DNA of 64,000 nt from an uncultured delta proteobacterium. GTDB lineage: Bacteria; Desulfobacterota; Binatia; UBA9968. A program made the translations under genes and the position numbers. The number at the start of each line of letters is the position of its first letter. Position 1 is the stretch's first letter. Of the stretch, positions 5,365-32,219 are shown piece after piece. The stretch covers positions 32,001 through 96,000 of the forward strand of contig CAVYTU010000007.1 of the NCBI GenBank assembly GCA_963771465.1, read 5' to 3'. The notes under the pieces were generated by a model. That model searched no databases and was not told the DNA's origin. It saw only the letters and a list, made by a program, of their open reading frames with translations.

Positions 5365-5670
5365 GAGCAATTTATACATGTGTTCCTTCTCTTTATCGGT
5401 GGAAACGATGGGCAAAGGATGCCCGCAAGGTGTGCCCGTGATGATCATCTTTTCTAAAACGCGCAAACGCCTCTCGATCTCGGTCGACATTTCTACCTCA
5501 CTGGCGGGCAAGTGCCGCCTCTAGGAGTTCAAGACGCTTCTCCAGCTCTTCAACCTGGCGAATCTTAATCCCCTGCTCAAGAATCAGCGCAGCACACCTT
5601 GCCCGAACGTCCTGCTTGCCGGCCTTCATAAGCTCAAGCAGCGTGTCTACCGCCGCCGTGGCGTTGATCT
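5365..5670 (-). pseudogene. Fragments of two phage/integrative-element-like small genes
   Basis: NATAAVDTLLELMKAGKQDVRARCAALILEQGIKIRQVEELEKRLELLEAALARQ* (stop 5498-5500) followed by MSTEIERRLRVLEK... Confidence 0.4.
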
Positions 5671-6103
5671 ATACCTTGCACCGAATGCGTCGTCCTGCCC
5701 CTATTGTAGCGCGTCCCTAAACGTTTCCTATTTACTTCCACACAAATAGAGCGTTGATCGGCTAAGCTTCGCTTGATCGCATGCTTGCTGCTCGGATGGC
5801 ATCGACACTAACAGCGGAATCAATCTTTTTTGCCGGCGGGTCAGGCTATTTGTCGGTGTGTCGTTCATTTCGGGTTAGTTCGGTCCAGTACTTTCCAAAA
5901 TGTTCTGAAATTATTGCGCCATTGGAACTACGAGGAAGGGGTGGCCGGTCGATTTCCCGGGGGTGGGGTAGGCGATCTTGCTAATTTGTGCCCAATTGCG
6001 GAGATAAAACAAGGAAAAAGCAAGCAAGTCGAGCGGGCTGCCAAGCTCGGGCTTACCTGCTTGCTCTTGACGTTTCTTGATGCTGGTTGCAGTAGACGAA
6101 AAG

Positions 6104-10275: not shown

Positions 10276-11310
10276 CTAGCCGAAAATTTTTCGCGCGAAA
10301 TCGATCATCAACCAGCTCAACATTGCGATTGCCGCCGAAGCCGGGATCGTAAGAATCCACGCCCAGACGATTCTGCCCGCAACATTCCAACGCACCGAAC
10401 GCAGCCGGCGCAAGGAGCCGACGCCGATGATCGCGCCCGTGATCGTGTGCGTGGTCGAAACCGGGATGCCAAAGTGAGCCGCGCCGAACAGGGTGAACGC
10501 GCCCGCCGCTTCTGCGGCGAAACCGCCGATTGGCTGAAGGCGCGTAATGCGCGATCCCATGGTGTGGACGATGCGCCAGCCTCCCGATAGCGTGCCGAGT
10601 CCGATGGCCGCATGCGCCATTAAAACAATCCAAAACGGGATAAGGAGTTTGCCCATCTCGTCGCTGACCAAATAGCGATACTCGGGGACAATGAACAGCG
10701 CGCCGGCGATAATGCCCATGGTTTTCTGCGCGTCGTTGGTGCCATGGCCGAGACTGTAAGCGGCCGCGGAGATCAGCTGGCCGCGGCGAAAAATATGGTC
10801 GACGCTGGCCGGAATCGACCGCTTGAAAATGTTGAGGATCGCCACCAAATTCAGCATGCCTAAACCCATGCCGAGGAGCGGTGCGAGGACAATAAATATT
10901 AGCGTCATGATCCACCCACCCGGTATAATGATGCCGAGTCCTGCCTTGGCGATGCCAGCACCGGCATAACCGCCGATCAAAGCGTGTGACGAGCTGGTTG
11001 GCAGCCCGACGTACCATGTGATCAGATCCCAAACGATGGCGCCGATCAGTGCCGCGAGGATAACGTAGGAATCGACCTGTTTGACGTCGAGCAGGCCGCT
11101 GCCGATGGTTTTGGCCACCGCGGTGCCGAAGGTAAAAGCCGCAACGAAGTTCCAAAAAGCGGCCCAGACGACGCCTTGCAGCGGCGTCAGCACTCGCGTC
11201 GAGACCACGGTGGCGATGGAATTGGCGGCGTCGTGAAAACCGTTGACGTAGTCGAAAGCGAGAGCGACGACGATGATAAAAATAGTCAGGACCAGAACCG
11301 GATCAGCCAT
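10276..11310 (-). CDS. pit: PiT-family inorganic phosphate transporter
   Basis: GFHDAANSIAT, PTSSSHALIGG, GTNDAQK, PVSTTH signatures. Confidence 0.95.
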   Translation of the reverse strand: MADPVLVLTIFIIVVALAFDYVNGFHDAANSIATVVSTRVLTPLQGVVWAAFWNFVAAFTFGTAVAKTIGSGLLDVKQVDSYVILAALIGAIVWDLITWYVGLPTSSSHALIGGYAGAGIAKAGLGIIIPGGWIMTLIFIVLAPLLGMGLGMLNLVAILNIFKRSIPASVDHIFRRGQLISAAAYSLGHGTNDAQKTMGIIAGALFIVPEYRYLVSDEMGKLLIPFWIVLMAHAAIGLGTLSGGWRIVHTMGSRITRLQPIGGFAAEAAGAFTLFGAAHFGIPVSTTHTITGAIIGVGSLRRLRSVRWNVAGRIVWAWILTIPASAAIAMLSWLMIDFARKIFG

Positions 11311-11929
11311 TTTTGATTACCACCCGTTGCAGCACGTCGGCGACATCTTCCATTCGGTCGGTGGTTTCTTCGAGCATTTCGTAGATTTCTTTCCAGCGAA
11401 TCAAGTTGAATAGGTCGTCTTTGTGACTGACGATATCCACCAGCGCTTCACGTAAAACACGGTCGCCGTTATTCTCGATGGTGTTGATCTCCTTAATGTG
11501 TTCCGCGACCAGACGAAAGTTTTTCTTTTCGCGCAGGTTGTGCATGGCTTCGTGGAGTTCGATGGCGCCGCTGCGGATCAATTGCCCCAACTGCCTGGCG
11601 CGTTCCGTCGGCGCTTCGATGCGAAAGATGACCATGCGAACGGCGGTGGCTTCGATGGCGTCCATGGTGTCATCCAAAGCCGAGATCAGCCTTTCAATAT
11701 CTTCGCTGTCGAGTGGGATGATCAAGGTGTGCATCAATAGATGCATCACTTCGTGGACGACGAAGTCGCCGCGGTGTTCCAGCTCAGTGATGTGGGCCAC
11801 TTTCGCTTCCACATGCTCATAATTGTCTAATAGATCTTGCAAAGCATCGGCCGCTTCAACCAGGTTGGCGGTGGCTTTCTCAAACCAGTCGTAGAATTTA
11901 GTTTCAGCCGGCAAAAACTGAAATTTCAT
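11303..11929 (-). CDS. DUF47 / PhoU-like Pit accessory protein
   Basis: EHRGD...PLDSEDI...LDD...ENNGD...WKEIYE..E..TD; overlaps pit start. Confidence 0.92.
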   Translation of the reverse strand: MKFQFLPAETKFYDWFEKATANLVEAADALQDLLDNYEHVEAKVAHITELEHRGDFVVHEVMHLLMHTLIIPLDSEDIERLISALDDTMDAIEATAVRMVIFRIEAPTERARQLGQLIRSGAIELHEAMHNLREKKNFRLVAEHIKEINTIENNGDRVLREALVDIVSHKDDLFNLIRWKEIYEMLEETTDRMEDVADVLQRVVIKNG

Positions 11930-12044
11930 TATGATCGCTCCGAAAATATTGTCGATTAAATGGAAATTAGAATTCGGGAACTGGAAACGCGATGATACTT
12001 AGCACGCGCTCAGCCGAGGTTCAACTGAATCTGGAAAATTTGGA

Positions 12045-14255
12045 TTAAGCGAACAAGGCTTCTACACGCCGGCGAATCTCATCTCGCACTTGGCGGAAAA
12101 TAGGCAGGATTTCTTCTTCGGTCCCAGCGGCCGCAGCCGGGTCAGGAAGCGGCCAGTGAGAACGTTTTACTGTGGCAGCTAAGGTCGGACAATGTTCATC
12201 GGCATCGCCGCAAAGCGTGATCACTTGGTCGATGTCGTTCAGCGGTACCTTATCGAGTCCTTTTGAAGATTGCATGGAAATGTCGACGCCGGCTTCTTGC
12301 ATTACGCGCACAGCGAGCGGATGAATGGATTTCGGATCGGTGCCGGCGCTGAAAAATCGATAACGGCCATTGCCGAGATGACGCGCGAAGCCTTCGGCCA
12401 TCTGGCTGCGACACGAGTTGCCGGTGCACAGAAATAATAAAGACTGTGCTGGCTGGGCCGGCGCGACAGCCGGCAAGCGTACGCGCACCGTGGTTCCTTG
12501 GCTTATCACGCTGTCGATGCTGAATTCTCCGGCGTGAGCCTGGACGATATATTTGACGATGGCAAGGCCGAGTCCGGTGCCGCCAAGATCGCGCGAACGC
12601 GCCTTGTCGACGCGATAAAAGCGTTCGGTCAAGCGCGGCAGATCTTTTTCCGGTATGCCGGTGCCCGTGTCTTTGACGACAATCTCCACCCGAGACGGTT
12701 CGCCGTTTCTGCTTTGCACCTCACTCGCAGTTAGCGAGACGGCGCCGCCCGCGGGTGTATATTTGATCGCGTTGTCGACCAGATTGATAAACAACTGTTG
12801 CAAGCGATCGGTATCGCCAAGAATTTCTGGCAGGTTATCGTCGACTCCCTGGCTCAGTTTCACGTTTTTCTTGGCCGCCTGGTCCCAGAAAACTTCCAAG
12901 ACCCGCTGAATCAATTGTCGCGGTTTTAACCCTTTTGACGATAACTGAATTTTGCCGGATTCGAGATCGGATAAAGTGAGCAAATCTTCGGTCAACCGGC
13001 TCAGCCGTTCGGCATGACGCTCGATAATTTCGAGGAATTGCCGGCGATCCTCGGCGTCAGCGGGCGGTGTGTGCAGCAATGTCTCGACGTACCCCCTAAT
13101 CGCGGTGAGCGGTGTGCGCAGTTCATGGGACACGTTGGCGACGAAATCCGATCGCATGTTTTCCAATTTCTTGATGTCGGTGATGTCGTGGAAAACCATG
13201 ATCGATCCCAACGACATGCCAAGTGGCGTTCTTAACGGCACGGCGTTGATGCGAAACCAGCGCGTGTCGTCGAGCTCGACTTCCTTGGAATAGGACGCGC
13301 TGGCAAAATTCAACTTGAGCACATCTTGCAGGATGTTGTGAATTTCCGGATGGCGTGAAAGTTCGAGCACCGAGATGCCGTGCAGATCTCGGTCCGTAGG
13401 GGCGTGAAACATCGCCTTAGCTTGGTCGTTGATCACCATCACTTTGCCTTTGGGGTCGAGCACCAATACGCCTTCGACCATGCAGCGCAGGATCGATTCG
13501 GTTTTTTCTTTTTCGCCGGTGATCTGCCCGATATCGCCCCGGAGTTTTCGGCTCATCTCGTTTAGGTGCCGTTCGAGCAGCGCGATCTCGTCGCGGCCGC
13601 CATGGGGAAAGAAGTTATCCGGAAACGTGCCACTGGTAACTTGTCCCGAAAAGCGCACCAAACGGCGCACGCGACGGCTCAGGTCGCGCGAAAAAGCCCA
13701 GGCCAACAGTAGCCCGATCGCCGATGCGACGATCAAGCCGGTGAGCAACGACCGGCGAAACGAGCCGATAACGGTCTCAACCTCTTTGAGCGCTGTGGCG
13801 ACGCGCACGACGCGTTCCTGTCCGGCGCCGGATTGGTGGAAGGCGCGATAGAGCAGATCATAGCCAACGGTTGTGCTGTAGCGGATCGCCGTGCCGGCGC
13901 CGCTTCGCCTCGCTTCGATCACCTCAGGCCGCGCAGCGTGATTTTCCATGCGTATCGACGGTTCTGAGGAGTCACCTAAGACGCGTCCGTCCATGGCGAT
14001 TACAGTGATGCGCGAGCCCAAGTCGCGCGCCAACTGTCGGCAAAGGGCGTCCAAGGGCTGTCCCTCGATATCGAATGGGAGCACGCGGCCGAGCAGATGG
14101 GCTTCCTGGTCCATGCGTGCGCTCAGGGTGGCGATGTGAAATTCGCGAACTTGATTGTTCGAGTAAAAATAGAAGCCGGCGAAGAGCAGCGCGACGACGG
14201 AGAAATAGGAAAGAAAGACCTTGGCGACTAGGCTATTGTTCCAAAGCCTTTTCAT
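12045..14255 (-). CDS. phoR: PhoR sensor histidine kinase (TM, HAMP, PAS, HisKA, HATPase) fused to a C-terminal ArsC/LMW-PTP domain
   Basis: DFVANVSHELRTPL, NLVDNAIKY, ERFYRVDKARSR..GGTGLGL; then CTGNSCRSQMAEG...TLCGDADEHCP...WPLPDP; start at ATG 14255 or GTG 14276. Confidence 0.9.
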   Translation of the reverse strand: MKRLWNNSLVAKVFLSYFSVVALLFAGFYFYSNNQVREFHIATLSARMDQEAHLLGRVLPFDIEGQPLDALCRQLARDLGSRITVIAMDGRVLGDSSEPSIRMENHAARPEVIEARRSGAGTAIRYSTTVGYDLLYRAFHQSGAGQERVVRVATALKEVETVIGSFRRSLLTGLIVASAIGLLLAWAFSRDLSRRVRRLVRFSGQVTSGTFPDNFFPHGGRDEIALLERHLNEMSRKLRGDIGQITGEKEKTESILRCMVEGVLVLDPKGKVMVINDQAKAMFHAPTDRDLHGISVLELSRHPEIHNILQDVLKLNFASASYSKEVELDDTRWFRINAVPLRTPLGMSLGSIMVFHDITDIKKLENMRSDFVANVSHELRTPLTAIRGYVETLLHTPPADAEDRRQFLEIIERHAERLSRLTEDLLTLSDLESGKIQLSSKGLKPRQLIQRVLEVFWDQAAKKNVKLSQGVDDNLPEILGDTDRLQQLFINLVDNAIKYTPAGGAVSLTASEVQSRNGEPSRVEIVVKDTGTGIPEKDLPRLTERFYRVDKARSRDLGGTGLGLAIVKYIVQAHAGEFSIDSVISQGTTVRVRLPAVAPAQPAQSLLFLCTGNSCRSQMAEGFARHLGNGRYRFFSAGTDPKSIHPLAVRVMQEAGVDISMQSSKGLDKVPLNDIDQVITLCGDADEHCPTLAATVKRSHWPLPDPAAAAGTEEEILPIFRQVRDEIRRRVEALFA

Positions 14256-14952
14256 CAAACTTGTAGCCGACACCACGCAGAGTGAGGATCCACTGGGGTT
14301 TACTATCGTCCTTTTCGATCGCTTTGCGCAAGCGGCGGATATGGACGTCGACGGTGCGCGGCGTGACGAAGGTGTCGCCGCCCCAGACGCGGTCGAGCAG
14401 TTGGTCGCGATTCAAAACCCGGTTGGGGTTTTGCACCAAAAATTTTAGCAACTCAAATTCCTTGAGCGTAAGTTTGACGGTCTGGCCACGGGCGAACACT
14501 TCGTAAGTCGAAAAATCGATTTTGAGCCCACCTTTGTCGTAGGCGGGCACCTGTTCCGCGTTCGCCGCGCCATTGGCGCGGCGCAGGATGGCGCGCACTC
14601 GCGCCACCAGCTCGCGTGGACTAAAGGGTTTCGCCAAGTAATCGTCCGCTCCCATCTCCAGGCCGACCACTCGATCGGCTTCTCCGGCTTTGGCCGTCAG
14701 CATGAGTATCGGCAGCTTTGCCGTATCGGGCCGCTCTCTCAGCAGCCTGCAGACTTCAAGGCCGGACAATCCCGGCAACATGAGATCGAGAATGACCAAG
14801 TTCGGCTTGTCGCGCTGAACGATCTTGAGGGCGTGCTCGCCGTCCTCGGCTTCCAGCACCTTGTAACGCTCCTGAACTAGATTGTAGTGAACCAGCTTAC
14901 GAATATCGGGTTCATCTTCGACGATGAGAATTTTATGCGCGTTTGTTGACAT
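14233..14952 (-). CDS. phoB: PhoB-like OmpR-family response regulator
   Basis: Receiver (EDE, LDLMLP, KPF) plus winged helix RTVDVHIRRLR; lies between phoU and phoR. Confidence 0.92.
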   Translation of the reverse strand: MSTNAHKILIVEDEPDIRKLVHYNLVQERYKVLEAEDGEHALKIVQRDKPNLVILDLMLPGLSGLEVCRLLRERPDTAKLPILMLTAKAGEADRVVGLEMGADDYLAKPFSPRELVARVRAILRRANGAANAEQVPAYDKGGLKIDFSTYEVFARGQTVKLTLKEFELLKFLVQNPNRVLNRDQLLDRVWGGDTFVTPRTVDVHIRRLRKAIEKDDSKPQWILTLRGVGYKFDEKALEQ

Positions 14953-14958
14953 AAACCC

Positions 14959-15651
14959 TTATACCGACGGTGGCAACTGTTTCATGTGACGGATGCTCTT
15001 GCCCTTGACCATGAAGATGACCATTTCGGCGATGTTGGTGGCGTGATCAGCGATGCGTTCGAGATATTTGGAGATCGAGCTGATTTTCGTCGCCCGGCTG
15101 ATGGTCTGAACGTTTTCCAGCATAAAGGTGAGCGTCTCGCGGAATATCTGCGAGTTGAGTTGATCGACCTCGTCATCGTCCTTACAAACCTTGAGCGCTA
15201 AATCGGTATCTTCCCGCACGAAGGCGTCGAGACTTTCGCGGATCATGCGTTGGGAAATGCGCGCCATCCTTGGAATATCGATATAGGGCTTGAGTTGCGG
15301 CTCTTGATTGAGTTCCAACGCGCGTTCGCAGATATTGACCGCCATGTCGCCGATCCGTTCCAAATCGGTGGTGATTTTTAGTCCGGTAGTAATGAAGCGC
15401 AGGTCGCGTCCCGCGGGTTGGTGCAGGGCTAAGAGCTTGATGCACTGATCATCGATGTTGACGTCGAGTCGGTTCACTTCATGGTCGCGTTCGATGATGA
15501 TATTGCACAGGTCGGAATCGCGGTCGACTAAAGATTTGACCGCTTTCTGAATTTGGTCTTCGACCAATCCTCCCATGTAGAGGATTTCTTCGCGGAGTTT
15601 GGTCAGCTCTTCCTCGTATCGTTTGTCGGTATGCTCGTTTAACATCGGCAT
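14959..15651 (-). CDS. phoU: Phosphate signalling protein PhoU
   Basis: QPAGRDLR...TDLERIGD...YLERIADHATNIAE. Confidence 0.95.
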   Translation of the reverse strand: MPMLNEHTDKRYEEELTKLREEILYMGGLVEDQIQKAVKSLVDRDSDLCNIIIERDHEVNRLDVNIDDQCIKLLALHQPAGRDLRFITTGLKITTDLERIGDMAVNICERALELNQEPQLKPYIDIPRMARISQRMIRESLDAFVREDTDLALKVCKDDDEVDQLNSQIFRETLTFMLENVQTISRATKISSISKYLERIADHATNIAEMVIFMVKGKSIRHMKQLPPSV

Positions 15652-15656
15652 CTCCC

Positions 15657-16506
15657 TTATCCGAAACGGCCGGTAATATAATCTTCAGTCTGACGCTTTT
15701 CCGGCGCGGTGAAGAGCTTGCCCGTTTCGCCAAATTCTACCAACTCGCCCAGATAGAAAAAAGCGGTGTAGTCCGACACCCGTGCCGCTTGTTGCATGTT
15801 GTGGGTGACGATGACGATGGTGAAAGTGTCTTTCAATTCGTGAATCAGCTCTTCGACTTTTGCCGTCGAGATCGGGTCCAAGGCGGAGCAGGGTTCATCC
15901 ATCAGCAGCACTTCGGGCTCCACCGCCATTGCCCGGGCGATGCAGAGGCGTTGCTGTTGGCCGCCGGATAAATCCGCCGCGCTCTTGTGCAAGTTGTCCT
16001 TGACTTCGTCCCAGAGGGCGGCGCGGCGCAAGCTTTTCTCGACGACTTCATCGAGAAAATGGCGATTGTTAATACCGACGATACGCAGGCCGTAGACGAC
16101 GTTCTCATAAATGCTTTTTGGGAAGGGATTCCATTTCTGAAAGATCATACCGACCCGGCGTCGCAGCTGAATGACGTCGGTCGACGGATCGTAGATGTTC
16201 TTGCCGTCGAGTTTGATGCTGCCGGTCACTCGGGTGCCCAGTACCAGATCGTTCATCCGGTTAAGACAGCGTAAAAGAGTCGTCTTGCCGCAACCGGAAG
16301 GACCGATGAACGCGGTAGCCTTCTTAGGCGCGATTTCTACGTTGATGGACTTCAGAGCCTGTTTTTCACCGTAATAAAAGTCGAGCGTCTTCCACGTTAA
16401 TCAACGGCGCGGCGGCCGATGCGTCAATCATGGGTTTCGCGATGCTCTCTAGTTTCACTTTGGGTGTGTCGCGCCGAATCGATCCGGCCGCCTCCTGTAA
16501 GTCCAT
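15657..16506 (-). CDS. pstB: Phosphate ABC transporter ATPase PstB; apparent 1-nt frameshift near 16388
   Basis: [11 protein letters not shown]...[35 protein letters not shown]; N-terminus MDLQEAAG with GGAGG RBS lies in another frame. Confidence 0.9.
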
Positions 16507-16541
16507 CTTACCTCCATCTATTGAGTTTTTCACGACAGCGC

Positions 16542-17450
16542 CTACCATTTTATTCGTTTGCGGAAGCGATAGCGGAAATAGATCGCAATGCCATTCATGA
16601 CCAGGGTCATGACCATTAGAACCAGCCCGGTCGCGGCGGCGTTCAAATGGAACTCCTGTTGCGGACGGGAAACCCAATTGAACATTTGAATCGGCATTAC
16701 CGTGAACGGAGACATCAGCCAGTCAAACGAAATAAAGGGAAACTCAGGTTTGACCGGCGCGTCGGGAAGAAAGGCGATAAAAGTCAACGCGCCGATGGTA
16801 ATCAGCGGCGCGGTTTCACCGATAGCGCGTGAGAGCGCGATAATGATCCCGGTCAATATGCCTCCCATAGAGTAGGGAAGCACATGGTCTCGGGTGGTTT
16901 GCCATTTGGTCGCTCCTAGCGCTAACGCGGCTTCCCTCATACCGGCGGGGACGGCGCGAATCGATTCGCGAGTCGCGACGATCACGATCGGTAGGATGAG
17001 CAAGGCTAAGGTGAGCCCGGCGGTAAGAATGCTCTGACCCAACCCGAGCTGATAAACGAACAGACCCAGCGCCATGAGGCCGTAGACGATCGATGGAACG
17101 CCGGCAAGATTGGCGATGTTAATTTCAATCAGACCGGTCAACCAATTTTTTGGCGCGTATTCTTCAAGGTACGCGCCAGCCGCGACGCCCATCGGCACGG
17201 CCGCTAAGGCGGTGACGAACATGATCAAACAGGTGCCGACCCAGGCTGAGAGTATTCCGGCCTGGCCGGCGAAACGGGAAGGGAAGGAAGTAAAAAATGT
17301 CGCGGTCAACCGGCCGGCGCCATCGGCGGCCAATTGCACGATCAGCGCGGCGAGCGTAATCAGGCCGACACAGGTCGCCAACAGACCTAGGATGCCGAAT
17401 AAGCTGTCCAGCCGTTTGCGACGATGATTATTTTTCTCAGCGGCAGTCAT
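16542..17450 (-). CDS. pstA: Phosphate ABC transporter permease PstA
   Basis: NLAGVPSIVYGL, EAALALGATKWQ, RAIGETAP. Confidence 0.95.
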   Translation of the reverse strand: MTAAEKNNHRRKRLDSLFGILGLLATCVGLITLAALIVQLAADGAGRLTATFFTSFPSRFAGQAGILSAWVGTCLIMFVTALAAVPMGVAAGAYLEEYAPKNWLTGLIEINIANLAGVPSIVYGLMALGLFVYQLGLGQSILTAGLTLALLILPIVIVATRESIRAVPAGMREAALALGATKWQTTRDHVLPYSMGGILTGIIIALSRAIGETAPLITIGALTFIAFLPDAPVKPEFPFISFDWLMSPFTVMPIQMFNWVSRPQQEFHLNAAATGLVLMVMTLVMNGIAIYFRYRFRKRIKW

Positions 17451-17451
17451 G

Positions 17452-18402
17452 TCAGTAAATCTCCCGGTAGCGTTTGCGCAAGAGATATCCGGCGATATTG
17501 AAGACCAAAGTCATTGCCATCAATGTCAGCCCGGCAGCGAATATACTCTGATAGGCGATGCTGCCGTGGGGCAGATCGCCCAAGCTCACCTGAACGATGT
17601 ACGCGGTGATGGTGGCGGCACCCTCCATTGGGTTCAGGGTTAAGTTAGGCTGTTGGCCGGCCGCAATGGCCACAACCATGGTTTCCCCTACCGCCCTGGA
17701 GAACGCCAAAACATAAGCTGACGCGATACCGGAAAAAGCCGAGGGGAAGAGCACCCGTAACGCGGTCTGGAGCCGCGTCGCACCCATGGCATAGGAGCCT
17801 TCGCGAATAGTTACCGGCACGGCTCTCATGGCATCTTCACTCAAGGAACTGACGTACGGGATGATCATAATGCCGATGACGACGCCGGCGCTAAGCATGT
17901 TGAAACCCGGCAGTTCAGGCAAAAGTTTTTGCAGTATCGGGGTTACGAACAGTAGCGCGAAGTAACCAAAAACTACGGTCGGCACGGCGCTCAAAAGTTC
18001 CAGGATCGGTTTTAAAACTTCTTTGACCCGACTATTGGCATATTCACTAAGATAAATGGCGATGGTGGTGCCCACGGGCAGCGCTAGTAGCAAGGCGACC
18101 GACGAGGTTACCACCGTGCCGGCGACCAAGGGCATGATGCCATAGTGGGGATTCTCGAATAACACGGTCCACTGGGTGTCGGTTAGAAAATCGACGATCG
18201 AGACGCTTTTAAAGAATGACCAGGATTCAGTAAGTAAAATTCCAACAATGCCCACCGTGATCGCGATGGAAGAGAGTGCGCACAAAAACATCGCAAACTC
18301 GATGATCCGTTCACGGATTTTTTGCATACTCAAATGCGCAGCCGACGCCTGCAGCGAAATCTTTCCTGCCAGATAGCCGGCTTGAGCCTGGTTGGCTTCC
18401 AT
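17452..18402 (-). CDS. pstC: Phosphate ABC transporter permease PstC
   Basis: ELLSAVPTVVFG, RAVGETM; operon order. Confidence 0.95.
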   Translation of the reverse strand: MEANQAQAGYLAGKISLQASAAHLSMQKIRERIIEFAMFLCALSSIAITVGIVGILLTESWSFFKSVSIVDFLTDTQWTVLFENPHYGIMPLVAGTVVTSSVALLLALPVGTTIAIYLSEYANSRVKEVLKPILELLSAVPTVVFGYFALLFVTPILQKLLPELPGFNMLSAGVVIGIMIIPYVSSLSEDAMRAVPVTIREGSYAMGATRLQTALRVLFPSAFSGIASAYVLAFSRAVGETMVVAIAAGQQPNLTLNPMEGAATITAYIVQVSLGDLPHGSIAYQSIFAAGLTLMAMTLVFNIAGYLLRKRYREIY

Positions 18403-18438
18403 ACTCTGGTTTCCTTCTATTCCTTAGAGACAGAGGAA

Positions 18439-18475
18439 GAATTGACGGGATACGGTCAAAGCATCCCGCCAATTC
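18439..18475 (-). terminator. Hairpin between pstS and pstC (terminator or mRNA stabiliser)
   Basis: GAATTGACGGGAT...ATCCCGCCAATTC inverted repeat. Confidence 0.5.
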
Positions 18476-18487
18476 AACCGGGGGAGG

Positions 18488-19474
18488 TTAGAACTTCGCT
18501 TCTCGCTTCAGTAGGTCTTCGATTTTCACACCTACTTCGGCCTCGCCGCCGAACACGGTCCCGATCTTGTTCTTCTTCAAATGATCGAGGCCCACGCTAT
18601 AGGCGCTCTGGGGAAGCGCTACATATTTTACGTCTTTAACCAGCTTTGGAGCGTTTTTCAGATAGAACTCGACGAACTCCTTGACATCCGGCTTGTCCAT
18701 GGATTTTTTAGCAACGTAAATAAAAATCGGACGGGAGAGAGGTTGATAAGAGCCGTCTTCAACAGTTTTGGGTGACGGAACGACGGGACCTTTGCCGCCG
18801 TCGATCGCGACCGCCTTGAGCTTTTTCTGGTTCTCGACATAGTAAGCAAAACCAAAATATCCCAGAGCATTGCGGTCGTTGCCGATGCCTTGGACCAGGA
18901 CGTTATCGTCCTCGCTGGCGGTAAAGTCACCGCGACTGGACTTGGCCTTTCCGACAATCGCTTCGGTGAAGTAATCGAAGGTCCCGGAATCAGCGCCGGC
19001 ACCAAACAGTTTCAACGGCGCATTGGGCCAGTTGGGGCGGACTTGGTTCCAGTTTGTTATCTTGCCTTGCGCGCCGGGTTCCCAAATCTTCTTGAGCTCT
19101 GCCACGGTCATTGACCCGGCCCAATCATTTTTTGGGTTCACCATCACGGTCAATGCGTCATAAGCGACCGGTAGTTCAAAATACTCAATGCCGGCACCCT
19201 TGCATGCTTCCATCTCTTGCTTAAGGATGGGTCGCGAAGCGTCCTGGACATCGGTCTCACCGCGGCAGAACTTCTTGAAACCGCCGCCGGTGCCGGCGAT
19301 GCCGACCGTGACTTTGACTTTGCCTTTTTTAGATTTTTGAAATTCTTCGGCGACCGCTTCGGTTATGGGAAACACCGTGCTTGAGCCGTCGATCTGGATA
19401 ACTTGTGCCTTGGCCGCAGGCGGGGCGACCCCGAGGAGGGCGAGAAGTGAAACTGCCAATAATGCATTTTTCAT
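18488..19474 (-). CDS. pstS: Phosphate-binding protein PstS
   Basis: Signal peptide, [31 protein letters not shown]. Confidence 0.95.
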
Positions 19475-19512
19475 CTTTTTCTCCTTTTTCTACGAGTTAA
19501 TTAGCGATCCAA

Positions 19513-19649
19513 TGTTACGGTTATGTTACAAGCGTCTTAACGTTTGATGAATGCGACGGCTGCATCAAATCGTTTATCTCAATCATTCGACGGTGAACGT
19601 AAGCGCCAATTGTAAATGCTACGTGACGGTTGGATTAAGACCGAATTAA
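19513..19649 (-). promoter_or_regulatory. Two arrays of Pho-box-like 11-bp-periodic hexamers upstream of pstS
   Basis: Plus-strand TGTTAC/TGTTAC/TCTTAA at 19513/19524/19535; TGTAAA/CGTGAC/GATTAA/AATTAA at 19611/19622/19633/19644. Confidence 0.65.
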
Positions 19650-19669
19650 ATAGGGACGGCCATCCATCG

Positions 19670-20668
19670 CTACGGTTGGGGTTCACGCTGGAGAAGCGTG
19701 TCAATTTTTATGGCGATTTCAGCCTTGCCACCGAAGGCAGTCCCGTAGCGTCCGATTCTTACTCGCTCGATAGCGAGCTCATATCCGCGAGTCGGCAGGG
19801 GCACATATTTCAATTGCTTGACGATTTGTGACGCCCTGGTGAGATAGAACGCGATGAACTGGCGCATTTCAGCCCCATCAAGGCTCTTTTTGCTGATGTA
19901 AATAAACAGCGGTCGCGACAGCGGTTGGTAGGTGCCATCTTCTACGCTCTTAACCGACGGCGACACCGGTCCGTTGCCGCCGTCGATGGGCACAGCCCGC
20001 AATTTCTTCTGATTTTGAACGTAGTAACCGTAGCCAAAATAGCCAAGCGCATCGGGCTCTTTGGCGATGGCTTGAACCAGAACGTTGTCGTCTTCGCTAG
20101 CGCTGTAATCGCTTCGGCTCGCTTTGGACTTACCGACGATCGCTTCAGTGAAGTAATCGAAGGTGCCTGAATCGGCGCCTGGAGCAAACAGTTTGATCAG
20201 CCGGTCGGGCCAAGCGGCGCGAATCTGTCGCCAATGGGTAATTCGACTCTGCGCCGCCGGTTCCCAGATTCTTTTCAGCTCGCCGATCGAAAATGAGTTC
20301 GCCCAATTGTTCTGGGGATTTACCAGTACCGTTAAAGCATCGTAGGCGAGCGGGATCTCGATGAATTGAACGCCGAATTTTTTGCAGAGATCCAGCTCGT
20401 GTTTGAGAATCGGCCGGGACGCATTGTTGATATTCGACACTTCAAGGCAAAAATTTCTAAAGCCGCCGCCGGTTCCTGATATTCCAATGGTCGCGGTGAT
20501 CGAGCCGTGCATTAGTTTTTGAAAGTCATCCGCGGCTTTCTTGGATATCGGATAGACCGTGCTCGAACCGTCGATTTTGATCGCTTGAGCGTAGAGCAGC
20601 GCCGGCAATATAAAGCCTAAAGCGGCGACAAAATTTTTTTGCAGCAATGCCTTTAGAAGCTCTTTCAT
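19670..20668 (-). CDS. pstS: Second phosphate-binding protein (PstS paralogue)
   Basis: [28 protein letters not shown]; colinear with the adjacent PstS. Confidence 0.9.
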   Translation of the reverse strand: MKELLKALLQKNFVAALGFILPALLYAQAIKIDGSSTVYPISKKAADDFQKLMHGSITATIGISGTGGGFRNFCLEVSNINNASRPILKHELDLCKKFGVQFIEIPLAYDALTVLVNPQNNWANSFSIGELKRIWEPAAQSRITHWRQIRAAWPDRLIKLFAPGADSGTFDYFTEAIVGKSKASRSDYSASEDDNVLVQAIAKEPDALGYFGYGYYVQNQKKLRAVPIDGGNGPVSPSVKSVEDGTYQPLSRPLFIYISKKSLDGAEMRQFIAFYLTRASQIVKQLKYVPLPTRGYELAIERVRIGRYGTAFGGKAEIAIKIDTLLQREPQP

Positions 20669-20873: not shown

Positions 20874-21608
20874 ATGGCTGGCGGCATGAAAATGTACGGC
20901 AAACATCGCTTTCCTGGGCGATTGTTCATCGTCGAAGGAATTGACGGCTCGGGTAAGAGCACGCAATTGATGCTGCTCAAGAAGTGGCTTGAGTCCGAGG
21001 GTTATGTCGTCTATTTCAGTGAGTGGAACTCTTCGCCGCTGGTTCACGATGTGACCAAGCGCGGCAAGAAAAAGAAAATGCTGACGCCGATGACCTTTAG
21101 CTTAATTCATGCTACCGATTTTGCCGACCGCACGGAACACCACATCATTCCGCCGTTGAAAGCGGGCGCCGTCGTGTTGGCCGATCGTTACGTTTATACC
21201 GCGTTCGCCCGCGACGTGGTTCGCGGTGTCAGTCCCAAGTGGGTCAGGGATCTTTACGCCTTCGCCGTCAAGCCGACCATCGCCTTCTACTTTCGCACGC
21301 CGCTGGACGTGTCCATGAAGCGAATTCTTGGTGGCCGTGATGCGATCAAGTATTACGAAGCGGGCATGGACCTCGGTCTCAGCGACGATTTGGAACAGAG
21401 TTTCAAGCTATTTCAAGGACATATCATCGAGGAATACGAAAAGATGGTCGATGAGTTCGGTCTCGTCGTGATCGACGCCACCCGTTCCATCGAAGAGCAG
21501 CAGGCGGAAGTGCGCCAGATTGTCGGCGATGCGCTGGCCGGAACGAAGAAAACCAAGGTGAGGCGATGGCTCGATTTAACTTCTTTGGCGAAGGGCTCCC
21601 GGATATAG
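20874..21608 (+). CDS. Thymidylate-kinase-like P-loop kinase, copy 1
   Basis: IVEGIDGSGKSTQ, LADRY; start could be 20886 or 20892. Confidence 0.85.
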   Translation: MAGGMKMYGKHRFPGRLFIVEGIDGSGKSTQLMLLKKWLESEGYVVYFSEWNSSPLVHDVTKRGKKKKMLTPMTFSLIHATDFADRTEHHIIPPLKAGAVVLADRYVYTAFARDVVRGVSPKWVRDLYAFAVKPTIAFYFRTPLDVSMKRILGGRDAIKYYEAGMDLGLSDDLEQSFKLFQGHIIEEYEKMVDEFGLVVIDATRSIEEQQAEVRQIVGDALAGTKKTKVRRWLDLTSLAKGSRI

Positions 21609-22261
21609 ATCTCGCTGAGTTGAAGGGCAAGCTCATCGTCTTGGAAGGCACGGACGGTGTCGGCCGCTCGACTCAGATCGGGCTGCTCAAGCAGTGGCTC
21701 GAAAACCACGGCCATGCCGTGCTCGACACTGGTATGACTCGCTCGGCCCTGGCCGGCAAGCGGCTAAAGATTGCCAAGGAAGGCCACACGCTGGGCGGCA
21801 TCACGATGAGTTTGTTTTATGCCACCGATTTCGCCGATCGCTTGGAGAACGAAATCATTCCGGCGTTGCGCGCCGGCTTCATCGTGCTCACCGACCGATA
21901 CACTTATTCGCTGATGGCGCGGGCGATTGTCCGCGGCGCCGATCCGGAGTGGCTGCGCGAGGTGTACGGTTTCGCACTCATCCCCGACGCGATTTTCTAT
22001 TTGCGCGTGCAGATCGACGACCTGATCACGCGCGTGCTGCAAAGCCGCGGCTTTAATTACTGGGAGTCGGGCATGGATCTCCACATGGGCGAAGACATGT
22101 ATGAAAGTTTTGTCCGCTATCAGAAATGGCTGTTGGCCGAGTTCGATAAGATGGTCGAGGTTTATGGATTTCAACCCATCGATGCGGCGGGCTCGGTGGA
22201 GGATGTTTTCAATGACTTGCGTGACCGAGTCGACGCCGTGGTCGCGCGCAACGGCGCCTAG
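21566..22261 (+). CDS. Thymidylate-kinase-like P-loop kinase, copy 2 (Walker A Lys replaced by Arg)
   Basis: VLEGTDGVGRSTQ, LTDRY; overlaps copy 1 by 43 nt. Confidence 0.85.
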   Translation: MARFNFFGEGLPDIDLAELKGKLIVLEGTDGVGRSTQIGLLKQWLENHGHAVLDTGMTRSALAGKRLKIAKEGHTLGGITMSLFYATDFADRLENEIIPALRAGFIVLTDRYTYSLMARAIVRGADPEWLREVYGFALIPDAIFYLRVQIDDLITRVLQSRGFNYWESGMDLHMGEDMYESFVRYQKWLLAEFDKMVEVYGFQPIDAAGSVEDVFNDLRDRVDAVVARNGA

Positions 22262-23746: not shown

Positions 23747-24187
23747 CTAAGAAATATTGCGCCAGTGATCGAGAAACAAGGCGAAAACTCTTTTGTCGAT
23801 TTCGTCGCGGTTCTCCCGAATCGCCTTTAGCGTTGGCTGGTCGTCACCGCCACTCGCCGGATGGTTTGGCACGTTCCAGTTTTCGACGCTGGCGCGACCC
23901 GGTAGATTCGAACATTTTTTGTGGGCGTCATCGAAGCTCACGACGAGATCGATCTCTTGGATCGGCACATCGGCCAAACCCTTACTACTTTGACCGAGCA
24001 TGCTGATGCCCAATTCTTGCATCGCTTGTACCACATGGAGAGGAATGACTCCTGGCTTGATGCCGGCGCTAAATATTCTCGTTCGCGGCGGCGCCAGATG
24101 CTTGGCGCTGGCTTCGGCAATCTGGCTTAAGCAGGTATTGTCTTGGCAAAGGAAGAGAACGTTACGTTGAATGCTTTCGCGGCGCAT
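23747..24187 (-). CDS. LMW-PTP/ArsC-fold protein with degenerate active site
   Basis: VLFLCQDNTCLSQIAE (no CX5R arginine), FSAG, QSSKGL; WNVPNHP instead of W..PDP. Confidence 0.8.
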   Translation of the reverse strand: MRRESIQRNVLFLCQDNTCLSQIAEASAKHLAPPRTRIFSAGIKPGVIPLHVVQAMQELGISMLGQSSKGLADVPIQEIDLVVSFDDAHKKCSNLPGRASVENWNVPNHPASGGDDQPTLKAIRENRDEIDKRVFALFLDHWRNIS

Positions 24188-28041: not shown

Positions 28042-30025
28042 TCAACTGCCGATCGGACCACCGTCGTCCTTGGTGATCACGATGCAGGCCGAGCGCGGAC
28101 GCCCACCGGCAGCGCCGTCGGGCCAGGAGCTTAACGCCTTCGGATTGGCCGGGTTGGTGGGCGTGTCGTCGGGCGTCTCGCCCGGGTGCTGGATGCCGAC
28201 GAACATGGCGAGCTCGTCGGGAGTGGTGAACACGCCGGTGATTTCGCACTGCTTGGGACCGACGAGAAAGCGGCGAATTTCGCCGGACTCCGGATCAGCG
28301 CACAACATCTGGTTGTGGCCAAACCCCGCGTACGCACCCGAGTTGATCGTCGACGTCGACACGTCGGTTTCGATCCAGAGTCGGCCGCTCGGCGCCACGT
28401 ATATCCCGTCGGGCGAGCCGAACTTATCCCCCTCGATGTCAGAGCCATGGGCTGGAACGCTTGGGTCACCGCAGAGCGCGAAGATCTCCCACTCGAAGTC
28501 GGGCTCATCAAAGTCCTTATCGTATTTCCAAGTGATGATATGCCCGTAGTCATTGATGGCGCGCGGATTGGCTGCGTCCACAGCCGGTCGTGCCGCACCC
28601 GCGGTAGTGCTGCCGTTAGGGTTGTTGACGGAAAGTGGGTTGCTGCCCCGGCGGTTATTGTTGGTGAGGGTGGCGATGGCCGTAAGCGCTTTGGGAAAAG
28701 TATCGATCCATTCGGGACGATCCATCATCGTGGCACCGACCGCGTCGGCGGCGCCACGGGTATTGATCAAAATATCATTCAACGTCCAGCCCATCGGGTG
28801 ATCCGGCGTGGGCGGAACATCTGCCGGCGTGAGCGGCAGCCAGTTGCCGGTGCCATCGGCGTTAAACTTGGCGACGTAGAGGATGCCATCGTCGAGGGGA
28901 TTGATTCCCTTGCGGCGCGCCTGGCGCCACGGCAGGTTTGACACGTACCGATAGATGTATTCGTTGCGCTCATCATCGCCCATATAAACGACGATCTTGC
29001 CGCTCTTGGTCTCCTGCACCCAAGCGCCTTCATGTTTGATACGGCCGAGTGCGGTGCGCTTTACCGGCGTTGAAGTCGGATCGAAAGGATCGATCTCGAC
29101 CACCCAGCCGAAGCGGTTGGGCTCGTTCCGTTCGACGTCGGCGTTGAAGCGCGGATGAGTCGTGTGCCAGCGAAAGCCCGACGTGAGCGGCGAGATACCG
29201 TAGCGCTTCTCAAATGCGCTGCGCGGGTCCGGTGCCGTCGATGGTCCGGAAAAAGAAACCATTGAAATTCTCCTCGCAACTGAGATACGTGCCCCACGGA
29301 GTAAAGCCCATGGCGCAGTTGTTCACCGTGCCGAGCACGAGTTTGCCGGTGGGATCCGCGCTCGTCTTCAGCCGATCATCTCCCGCGGCCGGGCCGCCGA
29401 TCTCGATCGGAGTCTGACCGGTAATGCGGCGTGCGTACTGCGACGGCCGCACGACGCGCCACTCGCCGCCCTTTTGGCCTTTGCCGCCTTGCTTGGTGAT
29501 CTCGATGATCGATACGCCGTGGGCGTTGATCGATTTGTTGGTTTTTTCCGCGTTCCAGTTGGCGATGCCGTCGGTGAAAAGCAGACCTTCATCGGCGTAC
29601 TCGTTGTTCTGCACCAGTAGTCCGCGCGCCGAACCGTTTATCGGAAAATACACCACGCCGTCGTTGTGCGCGCCCCACTGGAGCGCCTGATCGGCGGCGC
29701 TGTTGCTGGCATCCTGCTTGAACGCTGGCCCGTTCGACACCGGGTCGCCCCAGGCGATCAATACACGCGCTGTGTATCCCGGAGGCACAACGACCTCGTC
29801 GGCCGTGGACACCGGAATCGCCTGAAAGCCGAGCAGCGGTCCGCCATTGGCTTTTGCCGAAGCCGGTACGGCTTTCAGCAAAGCATCGACGCCGACTAAT
29901 GAAAGGGCCGCCGCGGTAAGACCGCTTTTTAGAAAGCCGCGTCGAGACACTCGCGCGTCGACAACGTCCTGTAAGGACTGGTTGCCGGAAGTGTTGCAGA
30001 CATTATCATCATCAGGATTGTTCAT
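28042..30025 (-). CDS. phoX: PhoX-family (DUF839) Tat-exported alkaline phosphatase; apparent frameshift at ~29215-29255
   Basis: SRRGFLK Tat motif, NNCA.G.TPWGTYLSCEENF, PNRFGWVVEIDP, KHE, MDRPEW, SPDG, CEITG, IQHPG; split over two ORFs. Confidence 0.9.
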
Positions 30026-30182: not shown

Positions 30183-30217
30183 TTGATCTGAATGTTATTT
30201 CGATGATAGTGGAAATA
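30183..30217 (+). promoter_or_regulatory. Probable arsR promoter/operator
   Basis: TTGATC followed by TATTTC-10 nt-GAAATA inverted repeat abutting the start codon. Confidence 0.5.
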
Positions 30218-30597
30218 TGGAAATAAGGGCGGCGGTAACGACTCTAGCGGCACTCGCGCAGGAAACCCGGCTGTCGATTTTCCGTCTCCTTGTCGAGGCG
30301 GGAAGAGACGGCGAATCAGTTGGGCGCATCGGCGAGAGTTTGAAAGTCGCCGGGGCTACGTTGTCGTTTCATTTAAAGGAACTGGCGCGGGCGGGCCTGG
30401 TGACTTCAAGGCAAGAGCGGCAGTTTATTTACTACACCGTCGATTTCGAACGCATGGCTGAGATCATGACTTTCCTTACCCAGAATTGTTGCCACGGCAT
30501 GCCGCAGGCTTGCCTCAACGTAGTCGAAACGGCCCTGGGAAGCTGCTGCCCACCTAGCCCATCTAAACCCAAGAAGAAGAAAAGGAGTCGATCATGA
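30217..30597 (+). CDS. arsR: ArsR-family arsenic-responsive repressor
   Basis: LAALAQETRLSIFRLLV, TLSFHLKEL, C-terminal NCC.G. Confidence 0.92.
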   Translation: MEIRAAVTTLAALAQETRLSIFRLLVEAGRDGESVGRIGESLKVAGATLSFHLKELARAGLVTSRQERQFIYYTVDFERMAEIMTFLTQNCCHGMPQACLNVVETALGSCCPPSPSKPKKKKRSRS

Positions 30598-31055
30598 AGC
30601 GTTTTCACGTTCATGTCATCGTTAACGATCTCGATGCCAGCATTCAGTTTTATTCGACCGTGTTCGGCATCCCACCTACGGTTCTGAAGCCCGACTATGT
30701 GAAATGGATGGTGGATGATCCGCGGATAAATTTCGCGATTTCGACGCGCGGCAGTGCGCCGGGTATCGATCATCTCGGCGTGCAGGTGGATTCGGACGAT
30801 GAATTGAGTGAATTGCGTGAGCAAGCGAAGGCGGCTGAAGTCGTTGTGTTCGACCAGGCCGACGCGACGTGCTGCTATGCGCGCTCCGACAAGTATTGGA
30901 TGACCGATCCGCAGGGGATTCCGTGGGAGACTTTCCATACGCTCGACACAATTCCCCTTTACGGCAACACGGAGCTCGCGCAGACAAGCGCTTGCTGCAG
31001 TGCCGCGCCAACCGGCGAAACCGCGTCCAACAAATCCACTGCGTGCTGCGGGTAA
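30594..31055 (+). CDS. ArsI/CadI-family VOC metalloenzyme
   Basis: [41 protein letters not shown]. Confidence 0.88.
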
Positions 31056-31066
31056 GGGAGACATTT

Positions 31067-31563
31067 GTGAAACAGGAAAATCTAAATGTTCTGTTTTTGT
31101 GCACAGGCAATTCGGCGCGCAGTATTATGGCTGAGGTCATTCTTAACTCCCTCGGAAAAAACAAATTCAAAGCTTTAGTGCGGGGAGCCATCCAGCGGGC
31201 AGCGTGAATCCACTGGCGCTGGCGCTTCTAGAAGAGTACCGCCTTCCAACCGAAGGCCTGCGCAGTAAGGACTGGAGTGAATTCTCCCAGCCGGACGCGC
31301 CGTTCATGCATTTCGTGTTCACGGTTTGTGATCAAGCCGCGGCCGAACCTTGTCCGGTCTGGCCCGGCCAACCGATGACCGCGCATTGGGGCGTTCATGA
31401 CCCGGCGGCGGTTCAAGGTAGCGACGAAGACAAGCGGAAGGCTTTTCTTAAGGCATATACGGAGCTTTATCGGCGCATATCGTTATTTATCAATCTGCCG
31501 TTCGGGACACTCAGCAAGCTCGCTCTCAAAGAAAAACTTGACGAGATCGGTCGCGCGCAATGA
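31067..31563 (+). CDS. arsC: LMW-PTP-type arsenate reductase ArsC; apparent 1-nt deletion in T-run at ~31175
   Basis: [16 protein letters not shown]; then SAGSHPAG...RSKDWSEF...[25 protein letters not shown] in the next frame. Confidence 0.88.
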
Positions 31564-32219
31564 GTTTTGGTCGGACAGCGACGGCAGAGGCGGTTGGAAC
31601 GGCCTTATTGCTGGCGATTGTGGTGGGTTCCGGCATCATGGGCGAGCGGCTCGCGCAGGGAAACGCGGCGATTGCTTTGTTGGCGAATTCGATCGCCACC
31701 GGCGCCGGGCTCTATACTTTGATTGTCATCTTCGGGCCAATTTCTGGGGCGCACTTCAATCCGGTTGTCTCAGCGGTCAGCGTGTGGCAGGGCGATCTTA
31801 CTGGAAGTCGCGGCATCGCTTATGCGTTGGCGCAAATCGCCGGCGCGTTCACGGGAGTGATTGCGGCGCACGCGATGTTCGGGTTGCCGATTGTTCAGGT
31901 CTCGGCGCATGTGCGCTCGACATTTGGAGAAGGATTCGGCGAAGTAATCGCAACATTTGGTTTGGTCCTGACGATCACTCTTACTTCGCGGTTTCGCGCT
32001 GAGGCGATCCCAACGGCAGTGGCCGCGTACATCACCGGCGCTTACTGGTTTACCTCGTCAACCTCGTTCGCCAATCCTGCTGTTACATTAGCTCGCGCGC
32101 TAACCGATACCTTCGCCGGCATTGCGCCCCAGAGCATAGTGCTCTTTGTTGCTGGACAGCTGATCGGCGCCACGTCTGCGACATTACTTTCTCGATGGCT
32201 GCTGAGCGGAAATCAGTAA
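31560..32219 (+). CDS. MIP/aquaporin-family channel (AqpS-like arsenite channel)
   Basis: SGAHFNPVV and YWFTSSTSFANPAVT motifs; last gene of the ars operon. Confidence 0.88.
   Translation: MSFGRTATAEAVGTALLLAIVVGSGIMGERLAQGNAAIALLANSIATGAGLYTLIVIFGPISGAHFNPVVSAVSVWQGDLTGSRGIAYALAQIAGAFTGVIAAHAMFGLPIVQVSAHVRSTFGEGFGEVIATFGLVLTITLTSRFRAEAIPTAVAAYITGAYWFTSSTSFANPAVTLARALTDTFAGIAPQSIVLFVAGQLIGATSATLLSRWLLSGNQ

Follow-up and report, generated by a model that had tools for sequence, protein, structure and literature searches.

A PhoR-type sensor kinase with a C-terminal thioredoxin-type arsenate reductase domain in the phosphate gene cluster of an uncultured bacterium

The stretch of DNA analyzed here (64,000 nucleotides; hereafter the window) carries a phosphate acquisition locus with the gene order pstS-pstC-pstA-pstB-phoU-phoB-phoR::arsC, followed by a DUF47 gene and pit. 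The features of this locus, of the fusion gene that it contains, and of two further loci with arsC-related genes are as follows.

10276..11929, minus strand: DUF47 gene and pit (PHO4 family), from Pfam; directly downstream of the fusion gene
12045..14255, minus strand: phoR-arsC fusion gene, 736 amino acids; Met1 invariant in 79 aligned homologues
12048..12443, minus strand: ArsC (LMWPc) domain of the thioredoxin type, from Pfam, NCBIfam and PDB sequence matches
12138..12143, minus strand: D105-P106 of the ArsC domain, from the alignment with 1jl3
12189..12212, minus strand: redox segment with the resolving cysteines (C82 codon 12210-12212, C89 codon 12189-12191)
12405..12428, minus strand: P-loop C10-X5-R16-S17 (C10 codon 12426-12428, R16 codon 12408-12410)
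12444..12470, minus strand: linker of 9 residues, variable in sequence and nearly fixed in length
12468..12818, minus strand: HATPase_c domain (Pfam), N, G1 and G2 boxes kept
12954..13157, minus strand: HisKA domain (Pfam), phospho-accepting His at 13125-13127
13182..13499, minus strand: PAS domain (Pfam)
13539..13694, minus strand: HAMP domain (Pfam)
13842..14138, minus strand: sCache-like domain (Pfam), flanked by two predicted long helices
14233..14952, minus strand: phoB, overlapping the start of phoR
14959..15651, minus strand: phoU, with no additional domain
15657..19474, minus strand: pstS-pstC-pstA-pstB; pstS from PBP_like_2, the other three presumably, from their motifs
23747..24187, minus strand: catalytically dead ArsC-like gene, flanked by ppx and a gene for a sixA-like histidine phosphatase
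30217..32219, plus strand: ars operon (arsR, glyoxalase-fold gene, split arsC, MIP channel gene)

Several further features of the region were noted. A tandem pair of pstS-like genes lies at 18488-20668 (minus strand), and a tandem pair of thymidylate-kinase-family genes (20874-22261, plus strand) faces the CHAD gene within the phosphate cluster. At 16385-16386 and at 29241, the contigs of two or three sequencing runs are one base shorter than the window; these two sites are therefore probable assembly errors, which shorten pstB and split a long gene (28042-30025), respectively. We take the latter gene to resemble PhoX. Ahead of DUF47-pit, a promoter-like motif (11988-12025, minus strand) is conserved in one group of relatives; other relatives possess at this site repeats spaced 11 bases apart, which presumably resemble PHO boxes.

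The frame of the fusion gene (14276-12045, minus strand) is free of stop codons. Its longest version begins at a GTG at 14276, and the Met shared by the relatives, at 14255, sets the length of the fusion protein at 736 amino acids. The deduced protein has the architecture sCache-HAMP-PAS-HisKA-HATPase, to which the 9-residue linker and the thioredoxin-type ArsC domain are appended. In a Pfam search with the 743-residue frame, HATPase_c ended at residue 603 and LMWPc spanned residues 614-742 (E 3.3e-19); HisKA, HATPase_c and LMWPc thus occur in one frame, the architecture that the initial annotation had read from the DNA. The H-box of HisKA, the N, G1 and G2 boxes of the HATPase and the PAS domain are all present in the fused PhoR, which falls under the cut-offs of both pertinent kinase models, TIGR02966 (305.4 versus 334.2 bits) and NF046044 (371.5 versus 400 bits); these models were built for other lineages. 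The sCache-like domain probably resides outside the membrane. A single-chain structure model (mean pLDDT 80, pTM 0.38) contains folded individual domains whose mutual arrangement is not fixed, and a fold search with this model recovered kinases only, the nearest being of the WalK type.

An assembly artefact or the merging of two genes was considered and ruled out. A contig from run X1, a soil run that may be the source sample and one of the 4 runs compared from the 24 listed, crosses positions 11700-12920 including the junction with five substitutions and no gaps, so that neither a stop nor an indel separates the two parts, and the identical in-frame junction is present in 35 further genomes. 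A contig from an RNA library covers 11715-12324; its presence is not evidence of transcription. Across the linker, the distance to C10 stays constant to within 3 residues in 37 of the 38 fused copies, and the linker of one genome (G042) is about 35 residues longer. The proposal that the linker is entered in frame with no internal ATG proved correct for the part following the last HATPase strand; within that strand, one in-frame GTG is found after a Shine-Dalgarno-like word. Since fused relatives do not show this combination more often (6 of 37 rows) than unfused ones (5 of 35 rows), a conserved internal start for a free ArsC is unsupported.

The best match of the C-terminal tail to a protein of known structure is ArsC from B. 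subtilis (1jl3; E 5e-38), colinear over 127 residues, and C10, R16, C82, C89 and D105-P106 align with it without gaps. The best NCBIfam match is TIGR02691 (arsC_pI258_fam) at 164.5 bits, below the cut-off of 174.3, which is passed in only one of the 90 family genomes, by the fused copy of G022 (179 bits). Together, Pfam, TIGR02691, the 1jl3 alignment and the key residues substantiate the initial reading that PhoR carries an intact thioredoxin-type ArsC domain at its C-terminus. We also considered and rejected an identity as a low-molecular-weight protein tyrosine phosphatase: true members of that group match with E-values of 6e-5 and worse, compared to 5e-38 for ArsC, and the redox pair is present. 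Passages of the literature describe a three-cysteine relay with reset by thioredoxin for the thioredoxin-coupled ArsC enzymes (PMC6193951, PMC10483234, PMC8949286) and treat the two resolving cysteines as their defining feature (PMC8949286, PMC6193951).

Among 38 fused domains taken from genomes and picked by kinship rather than by domain score, N13, R16 and S17 are invariant, C10, D105 and P106 are each kept in 37, and C82 and C89 are kept in the same 36. The corresponding counts in 117 database proteins (from 120 listed matches), which are biased in that these were ranked by their ArsC domain, are 116 for C82 and 117 for C89; in a second set of database proteins they are 81 of 82 and 80 of 82. 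Position 65 is Lys in all 38 fused domains; the Asp found there in known ArsC proteins is presumably the potassium site. We assume a catalytic role for Asp105. Cys15 is found in all 38 fused domains and also in 20 of 30 free ArsC representatives, and we therefore make no claim for a special Cys10-Cys15 switch; few positions are conserved in the fused domains alone when compared with these 30 free representatives, and kinship may account for them. With dN/dS values of 0.11-0.23 in 16 of 18 pairs (the remaining two being saturated), near those of the N-terminal sensor part, the ArsC domain of the fusion is under purifying selection. Two full-length copies (G048 and G068) have lost both resolving cysteines at dN/dS values similar to the others. 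G068 lacks all three catalytic cysteines and retains N13, R16 and S17; its locus is riddled with frameshifts, which may be due to noise or to decay.

The fusion gene and the ars operon are 18 kb apart; the fused ArsC sits in the pho operon. The arsC gene of the ars operon (31070-31563, plus strand) is broken into two frames near 31175, a break that may be real, since one contig from run X5 agrees with the window across it. A PF03960 match elsewhere in the genome contains a stop. The remaining LMWPc gene, the one in the ppx/sixA-like/CHAD operon, belongs to a clade of 42 family copies (support 99), none of which has Arg16 or Cys82. This conserved pseudo-enzyme of the ArsC fold occurs in 18 of 36 fused and 17 of 35 unfused genomes, hence equally in both groups. 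A tree places it together with the fused domain at support 89, for a larger group only. With the arsC of the ars operon split and the other LMWPc gene dead, the source genome has no unbroken LMW-type ArsC other than the fused domain. Both thioredoxin and thioredoxin reductase are encoded in this genome; searches of it for an Acr3 or ArsB exporter found none.

To follow the fusion among relatives, we searched 90 genomes of the family; the locus was readable in 78, and in the others, 12 in number, no phoR match reached the threshold. In 36 of the 78 genomes the two parts are fused in frame (including G068, scored as fused despite several frameshifts upstream in the kinase), which speaks against orthologues being always separate genes. 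In 35 genomes phoR ends after the HATPase, six have a frameshift or a contig end within the locus but retain the domain or its beginning close by, and one was left unassigned. Decayed arsC remnants follow six of the 35 unfused phoR genes (G014, G018, G059, G099, G100 and G101), and one genome (G077) carries the family's own ArsC domain as a standalone gene at the same site, without phoR. In a tree of the kinase (87 rows, three short rows left out), fused and unfused copies are interleaved and the fusion is kept on most deep branches, so that at least 17 changes of state are needed among the 70 family rows. The fused domains mostly cluster apart from the ArsC proteins of ars operons, at modest support in a short alignment. 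From this grouping, the interleaved kinase tree and the decayed remnants, we infer a single fusion in the ancestor of the family and many later losses; the fusion would have arisen by extension of phoR into an arsC gene located downstream of it. No match spanning the fusion was found outside the family among 301 genomes of the class or, with a different query, among 401 genomes of the phylum. A comparison of 36 fused with 34 unfused kinase rows yielded no column, of 599, that differed after correction. The family, one of uncultured soil bacteria, probably belongs to the class Binatia: close homologues are recorded in databases under names such as 'Candidatus Binatia bacterium', 'Candidatus Binatota bacterium' or 'Deltaproteobacteria bacterium', with a few others that look like bin mislabels, and a named Candidatus Binatus kinase is a near outgroup. 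Automatic annotation labels proteins of this kind as PhoR or as 'thioredoxin type arsenate reductase', naming one half each time.

A free arsC gene is present in 18 of the 36 fused and in 24 of the 35 unfused genomes (Fisher p 0.15), counts in which draft genomes can miss genes and the split arsC of the source genome is scored as absent. Over independent pairs, this complementarity amounts to 4.4 versus 0.9 (median p 0.25). Fused genomes hence lack a free arsC more often as a trend only, and not significantly.

Arsenate reductase genes also occur in the phosphate loci of other lineages. Free intact arsC genes of other subtypes directly follow phoU in three of about 100 genomes (G800, G812 and G820), and a further one does so in G225. 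Locus L085 has such a gene (5638-6057) immediately ahead of phoB, and G990 possesses the order phoU-phoB-phoR-arsC, with arsC 39 bases past the phoR stop, as the one case noticed among 201 genomes. The loci with a free intact arsC at the end of a pst-phoU or phoU-phoB-phoR operon, in unrelated lineages, are L326:5035-8245, L331, L332, L333 and L338. We found no description in the literature of this placement of arsC at the end of pho/pst operons or just ahead of phoB. Among the 80 loci listed from named genomes, most with a distant PhoR, at least six have an ArsC-type gene within 10 kb and none has a fusion. In four loci lacking the fusion (L151, L152, L154 and L170), phoR is followed directly by an arsC of another subtype encoded on the opposite strand.

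The ArsC fold has been joined to other proteins as well. In four of eight loci fetched (L334-L337; four genomes of another phylum), PhoU, encoded between pstS and pstC, is fused to a dead ArsC-like domain, which lacks the catalytic Cys and Arg and shares only 26-35% identity with the domains described here. Two kinase-ArsC fusions outside the family, both with another ArsC subtype (P0129 and P0131), turned up in the 150 top-ranking of 1.84 billion representatives, 44 of which were scanned. The kinase of P0131 groups with a Myxococcota sequence, and that of P0129 with other Binatia. Each is a singleton on a contig of only 1-2 kb, and neither was recovered in related genomes (201 and 25), so that independent fusion origins are no more than possible. 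One Acidobacteria record (P0279) joins an ArsC domain to a protein named glutamate-tRNA ligase.

We consider the fused domain to be best explained, with a probability of about 0.5, as an arsenate reductase under Pho induction that is tethered to the PhoR-PhoU-Pst complex. Phosphate starvation would induce the pst-phoU-phoB-phoR operon and with it the fused reductase; arsenate would enter via Pst and Pit, and the PhoR-PhoU-PstB assembly would hold the ArsC domain near the transporter. There, the domain would reduce arsenate through the Cys10/Cys82/Cys89 relay and be reset by thioredoxin, and arsenite would be exported separately, probably through the MIP channel encoded in the ars operon. Parts of the literature report arsenate uptake by Pit and Pst, with the Pst system of B. 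subtilis as one that does not import arsenate (PMC12607644), and describe PhoU as a bridge from PstB to the PAS domain of PhoR (PMC13577022). The scheme builds directly on the fusion, the residues, the selection, the gene order and the thioredoxin system. It is favored by the kept catalytic set, by purifying selection, by the presence of thioredoxin and its reductase, by the free intact arsC genes at phoU, phoR or phoB elsewhere and the standalone domain of G077, and by the status of the fused domain as the only unbroken ArsC of the genome, together with the free-arsC trend and the absence of differing kinase columns. Several observations weaken it: the trend is not significant; a free arsC persists in half of the fused genomes; the two copies devoid of the redox pair evolve at similar dN/dS; no Acr3 or ArsB was found; and the linker is of nearly fixed length. 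Moreover, a sensor kinase would usually provide a detoxifying enzyme with a carrier of low copy number. The dead domains conserved on PhoU and beside ppx indicate that the ArsC fold also has non-catalytic jobs in phosphate loci.

The kept cysteines, and the existence of the fusion itself, would also be accounted for if the reductase reported to the kinase. We hold it as a tentative possibility that turnover of arsenate flips the disulfide switch of the ArsC domain and that PhoR thereby tells arsenate from phosphate in the cytoplasm. The elaborated version, in which the Cys82-Cys89 disulfide formed during arsenate reduction would alter the kinase/phosphatase output of PhoR until reset by thioredoxin, with Pst and Pit being tuned when arsenate instead of phosphate comes in, appears to us slightly more doubtful still. 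A change of the 82-89 segment from helix to loop upon oxidation, described in a section of PMC6193951, is consistent with such signaling, as are the nearly fixed linker, the same fusion in two unrelated single proteins with another ArsC subtype, and a separate ArsC for detoxification in half of the fused genomes. Loss of the redox pair in G048 and G068 without faster change, and the non-catalytic use of the fold in other phosphate loci, would fit an allosteric link. However, no position of the kinase co-varies with the ArsC domain, G042 tolerates its additional linker residues, the many changes of state on the kinase tree imply that the kinase works without the domain, and the free arsC genes at the same operon position elsewhere imply that no physical link is needed; the two single proteins, for their part, are singletons on short contigs absent from the related genomes.

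The initial annotation had offered two functions for the fused domain, local reduction of arsenate and sensing of cytoplasmic phosphate. As far as gene content and conservation can tell, the former appears better supported, through the cysteines kept in 36 of 38 copies and the arsC genes in pho/pst operons. The latter, in which the P-loop would bind phosphate and move PhoR to its phosphatase state, arsenate reduction being a leftover, we regard as unlikely. It draws on the invariance of N13, R16 and S17, even in G068, on the dead ArsC-like domains on PhoU, on an account in PMC8949286 that the P-loop cysteine of pI258 ArsC binds arsenate and phosphate alike, and on the switching of PhoR being still unclear according to a portion of PMC13577022. 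Binding by the P-loop alone leaves the retention of Cys82 and Cys89 unexplained, as they are unnecessary for it, and this retention speaks for a functional reductase rather than a domain that only senses phosphate; in addition, the dead relatives on PhoU and beside ppx lack the P-loop Arg and thus provide no argument for anion binding, and the frameshift-rich locus of G068 is a questionable witness. Less probable still is a tethered phosphatase that uses the side activity of the fold on a protein or metabolite of the Pho system: ppx and a sixA-like phosphatase gene are at the same locus and pNPP is hydrolyzed by many thioredoxin-coupled ArsC enzymes, yet matches to true tyrosine phosphatases are weak and the resolving cysteines are dispensable for phosphatase activity, both biochemical points being taken from excerpts of PMC8949286. 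Equally remote is a passenger, a chance read-through fusion tolerated while being lost and with no role for the link to PhoR, which would suit the missing domain in 35 of 78 genomes, the remnants in six and the want of co-varying kinase positions, but which runs against purifying selection and retention on most deep branches, and which differs from the tethered reductase only by denying a benefit of tethering.

Arsenate enters cells through phosphate transporters, chiefly when phosphate is scarce, and the reductase domain sits on the very protein that switches these transporters on. Were detoxification its only task, the tethered reductase would make arsenic defense an ArsR-independent part of the Pho system; as a regulator of the kinase as well, it would represent a new kind of kinase input and bear on how PhoR reads the phosphate status. 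Should the disulfide switch be true, the ArsC fold, live on PhoR and dead on PhoU and in the ppx operon, would be an overlooked component of phosphate signaling. The uncultured hosts limit genetics; the cytoplasmic part of the fusion protein can be expressed and assayed, and close relatives provide a natural comparison set in which the domain is intact, devoid of its cysteines, split off as a free gene, or decayed.

Both halves of the protein are known. For a PhoR joined to an ArsC domain whose active site is intact, we found no description in the full-text literature, subscription papers being mostly outside that search. Genetic linkage of pst/pho with ars genes is already documented in parts of PMC3834237 and PMC7533571. 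The coupling of phosphate uptake to arsenic is shared with the arsenic islands and the PhoBR-AioSR cross-talk of Agrobacterium outlined there, systems in which the genes are separate and AioX or ArsR senses arsenic (PMC3834237, PMC7533571), whereas the reductase is here part of the kinase. The fused domain shares the CX5R loop, C82, C89 and D105-P106 with ArsC from B. subtilis (1jl3) and the S. aureus plasmid pI258 (TIGR02691), but differs in its fusion to a kinase, its place outside an ars operon, its Lys65 and its score below the TIGR02691 cut-off; the usual ArsC is a free enzyme whose gene shares an ars operon with those for ArsR and an arsenite pump, and here it is fused to PhoR in a pho operon. 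With the PhoR/PnpS kinases (TIGR02966, NF046044), the protein has in common the PAS-HisKA-HATPase core and the adjoining phoB, phoU and pstSCAB genes; it deviates from them by the additional C-terminal enzyme domain of 133 residues, by the sCache-like and HAMP domains and by missing both cut-offs. The PhoU proteins with a dead ArsC domain likewise place this fold on a member of the Pho signaling complex, but have lost the catalytic Cys and Arg that are intact in the PhoR-fused domain. Fusions of ArsC with ArsR, Acr3, ArsA and GNAT proteins illustrate that ArsC readily joins its neighbors; the partners in those are mostly arsenic genes, whereas a histidine kinase appeared as the partner only in the present family and in the two singletons.
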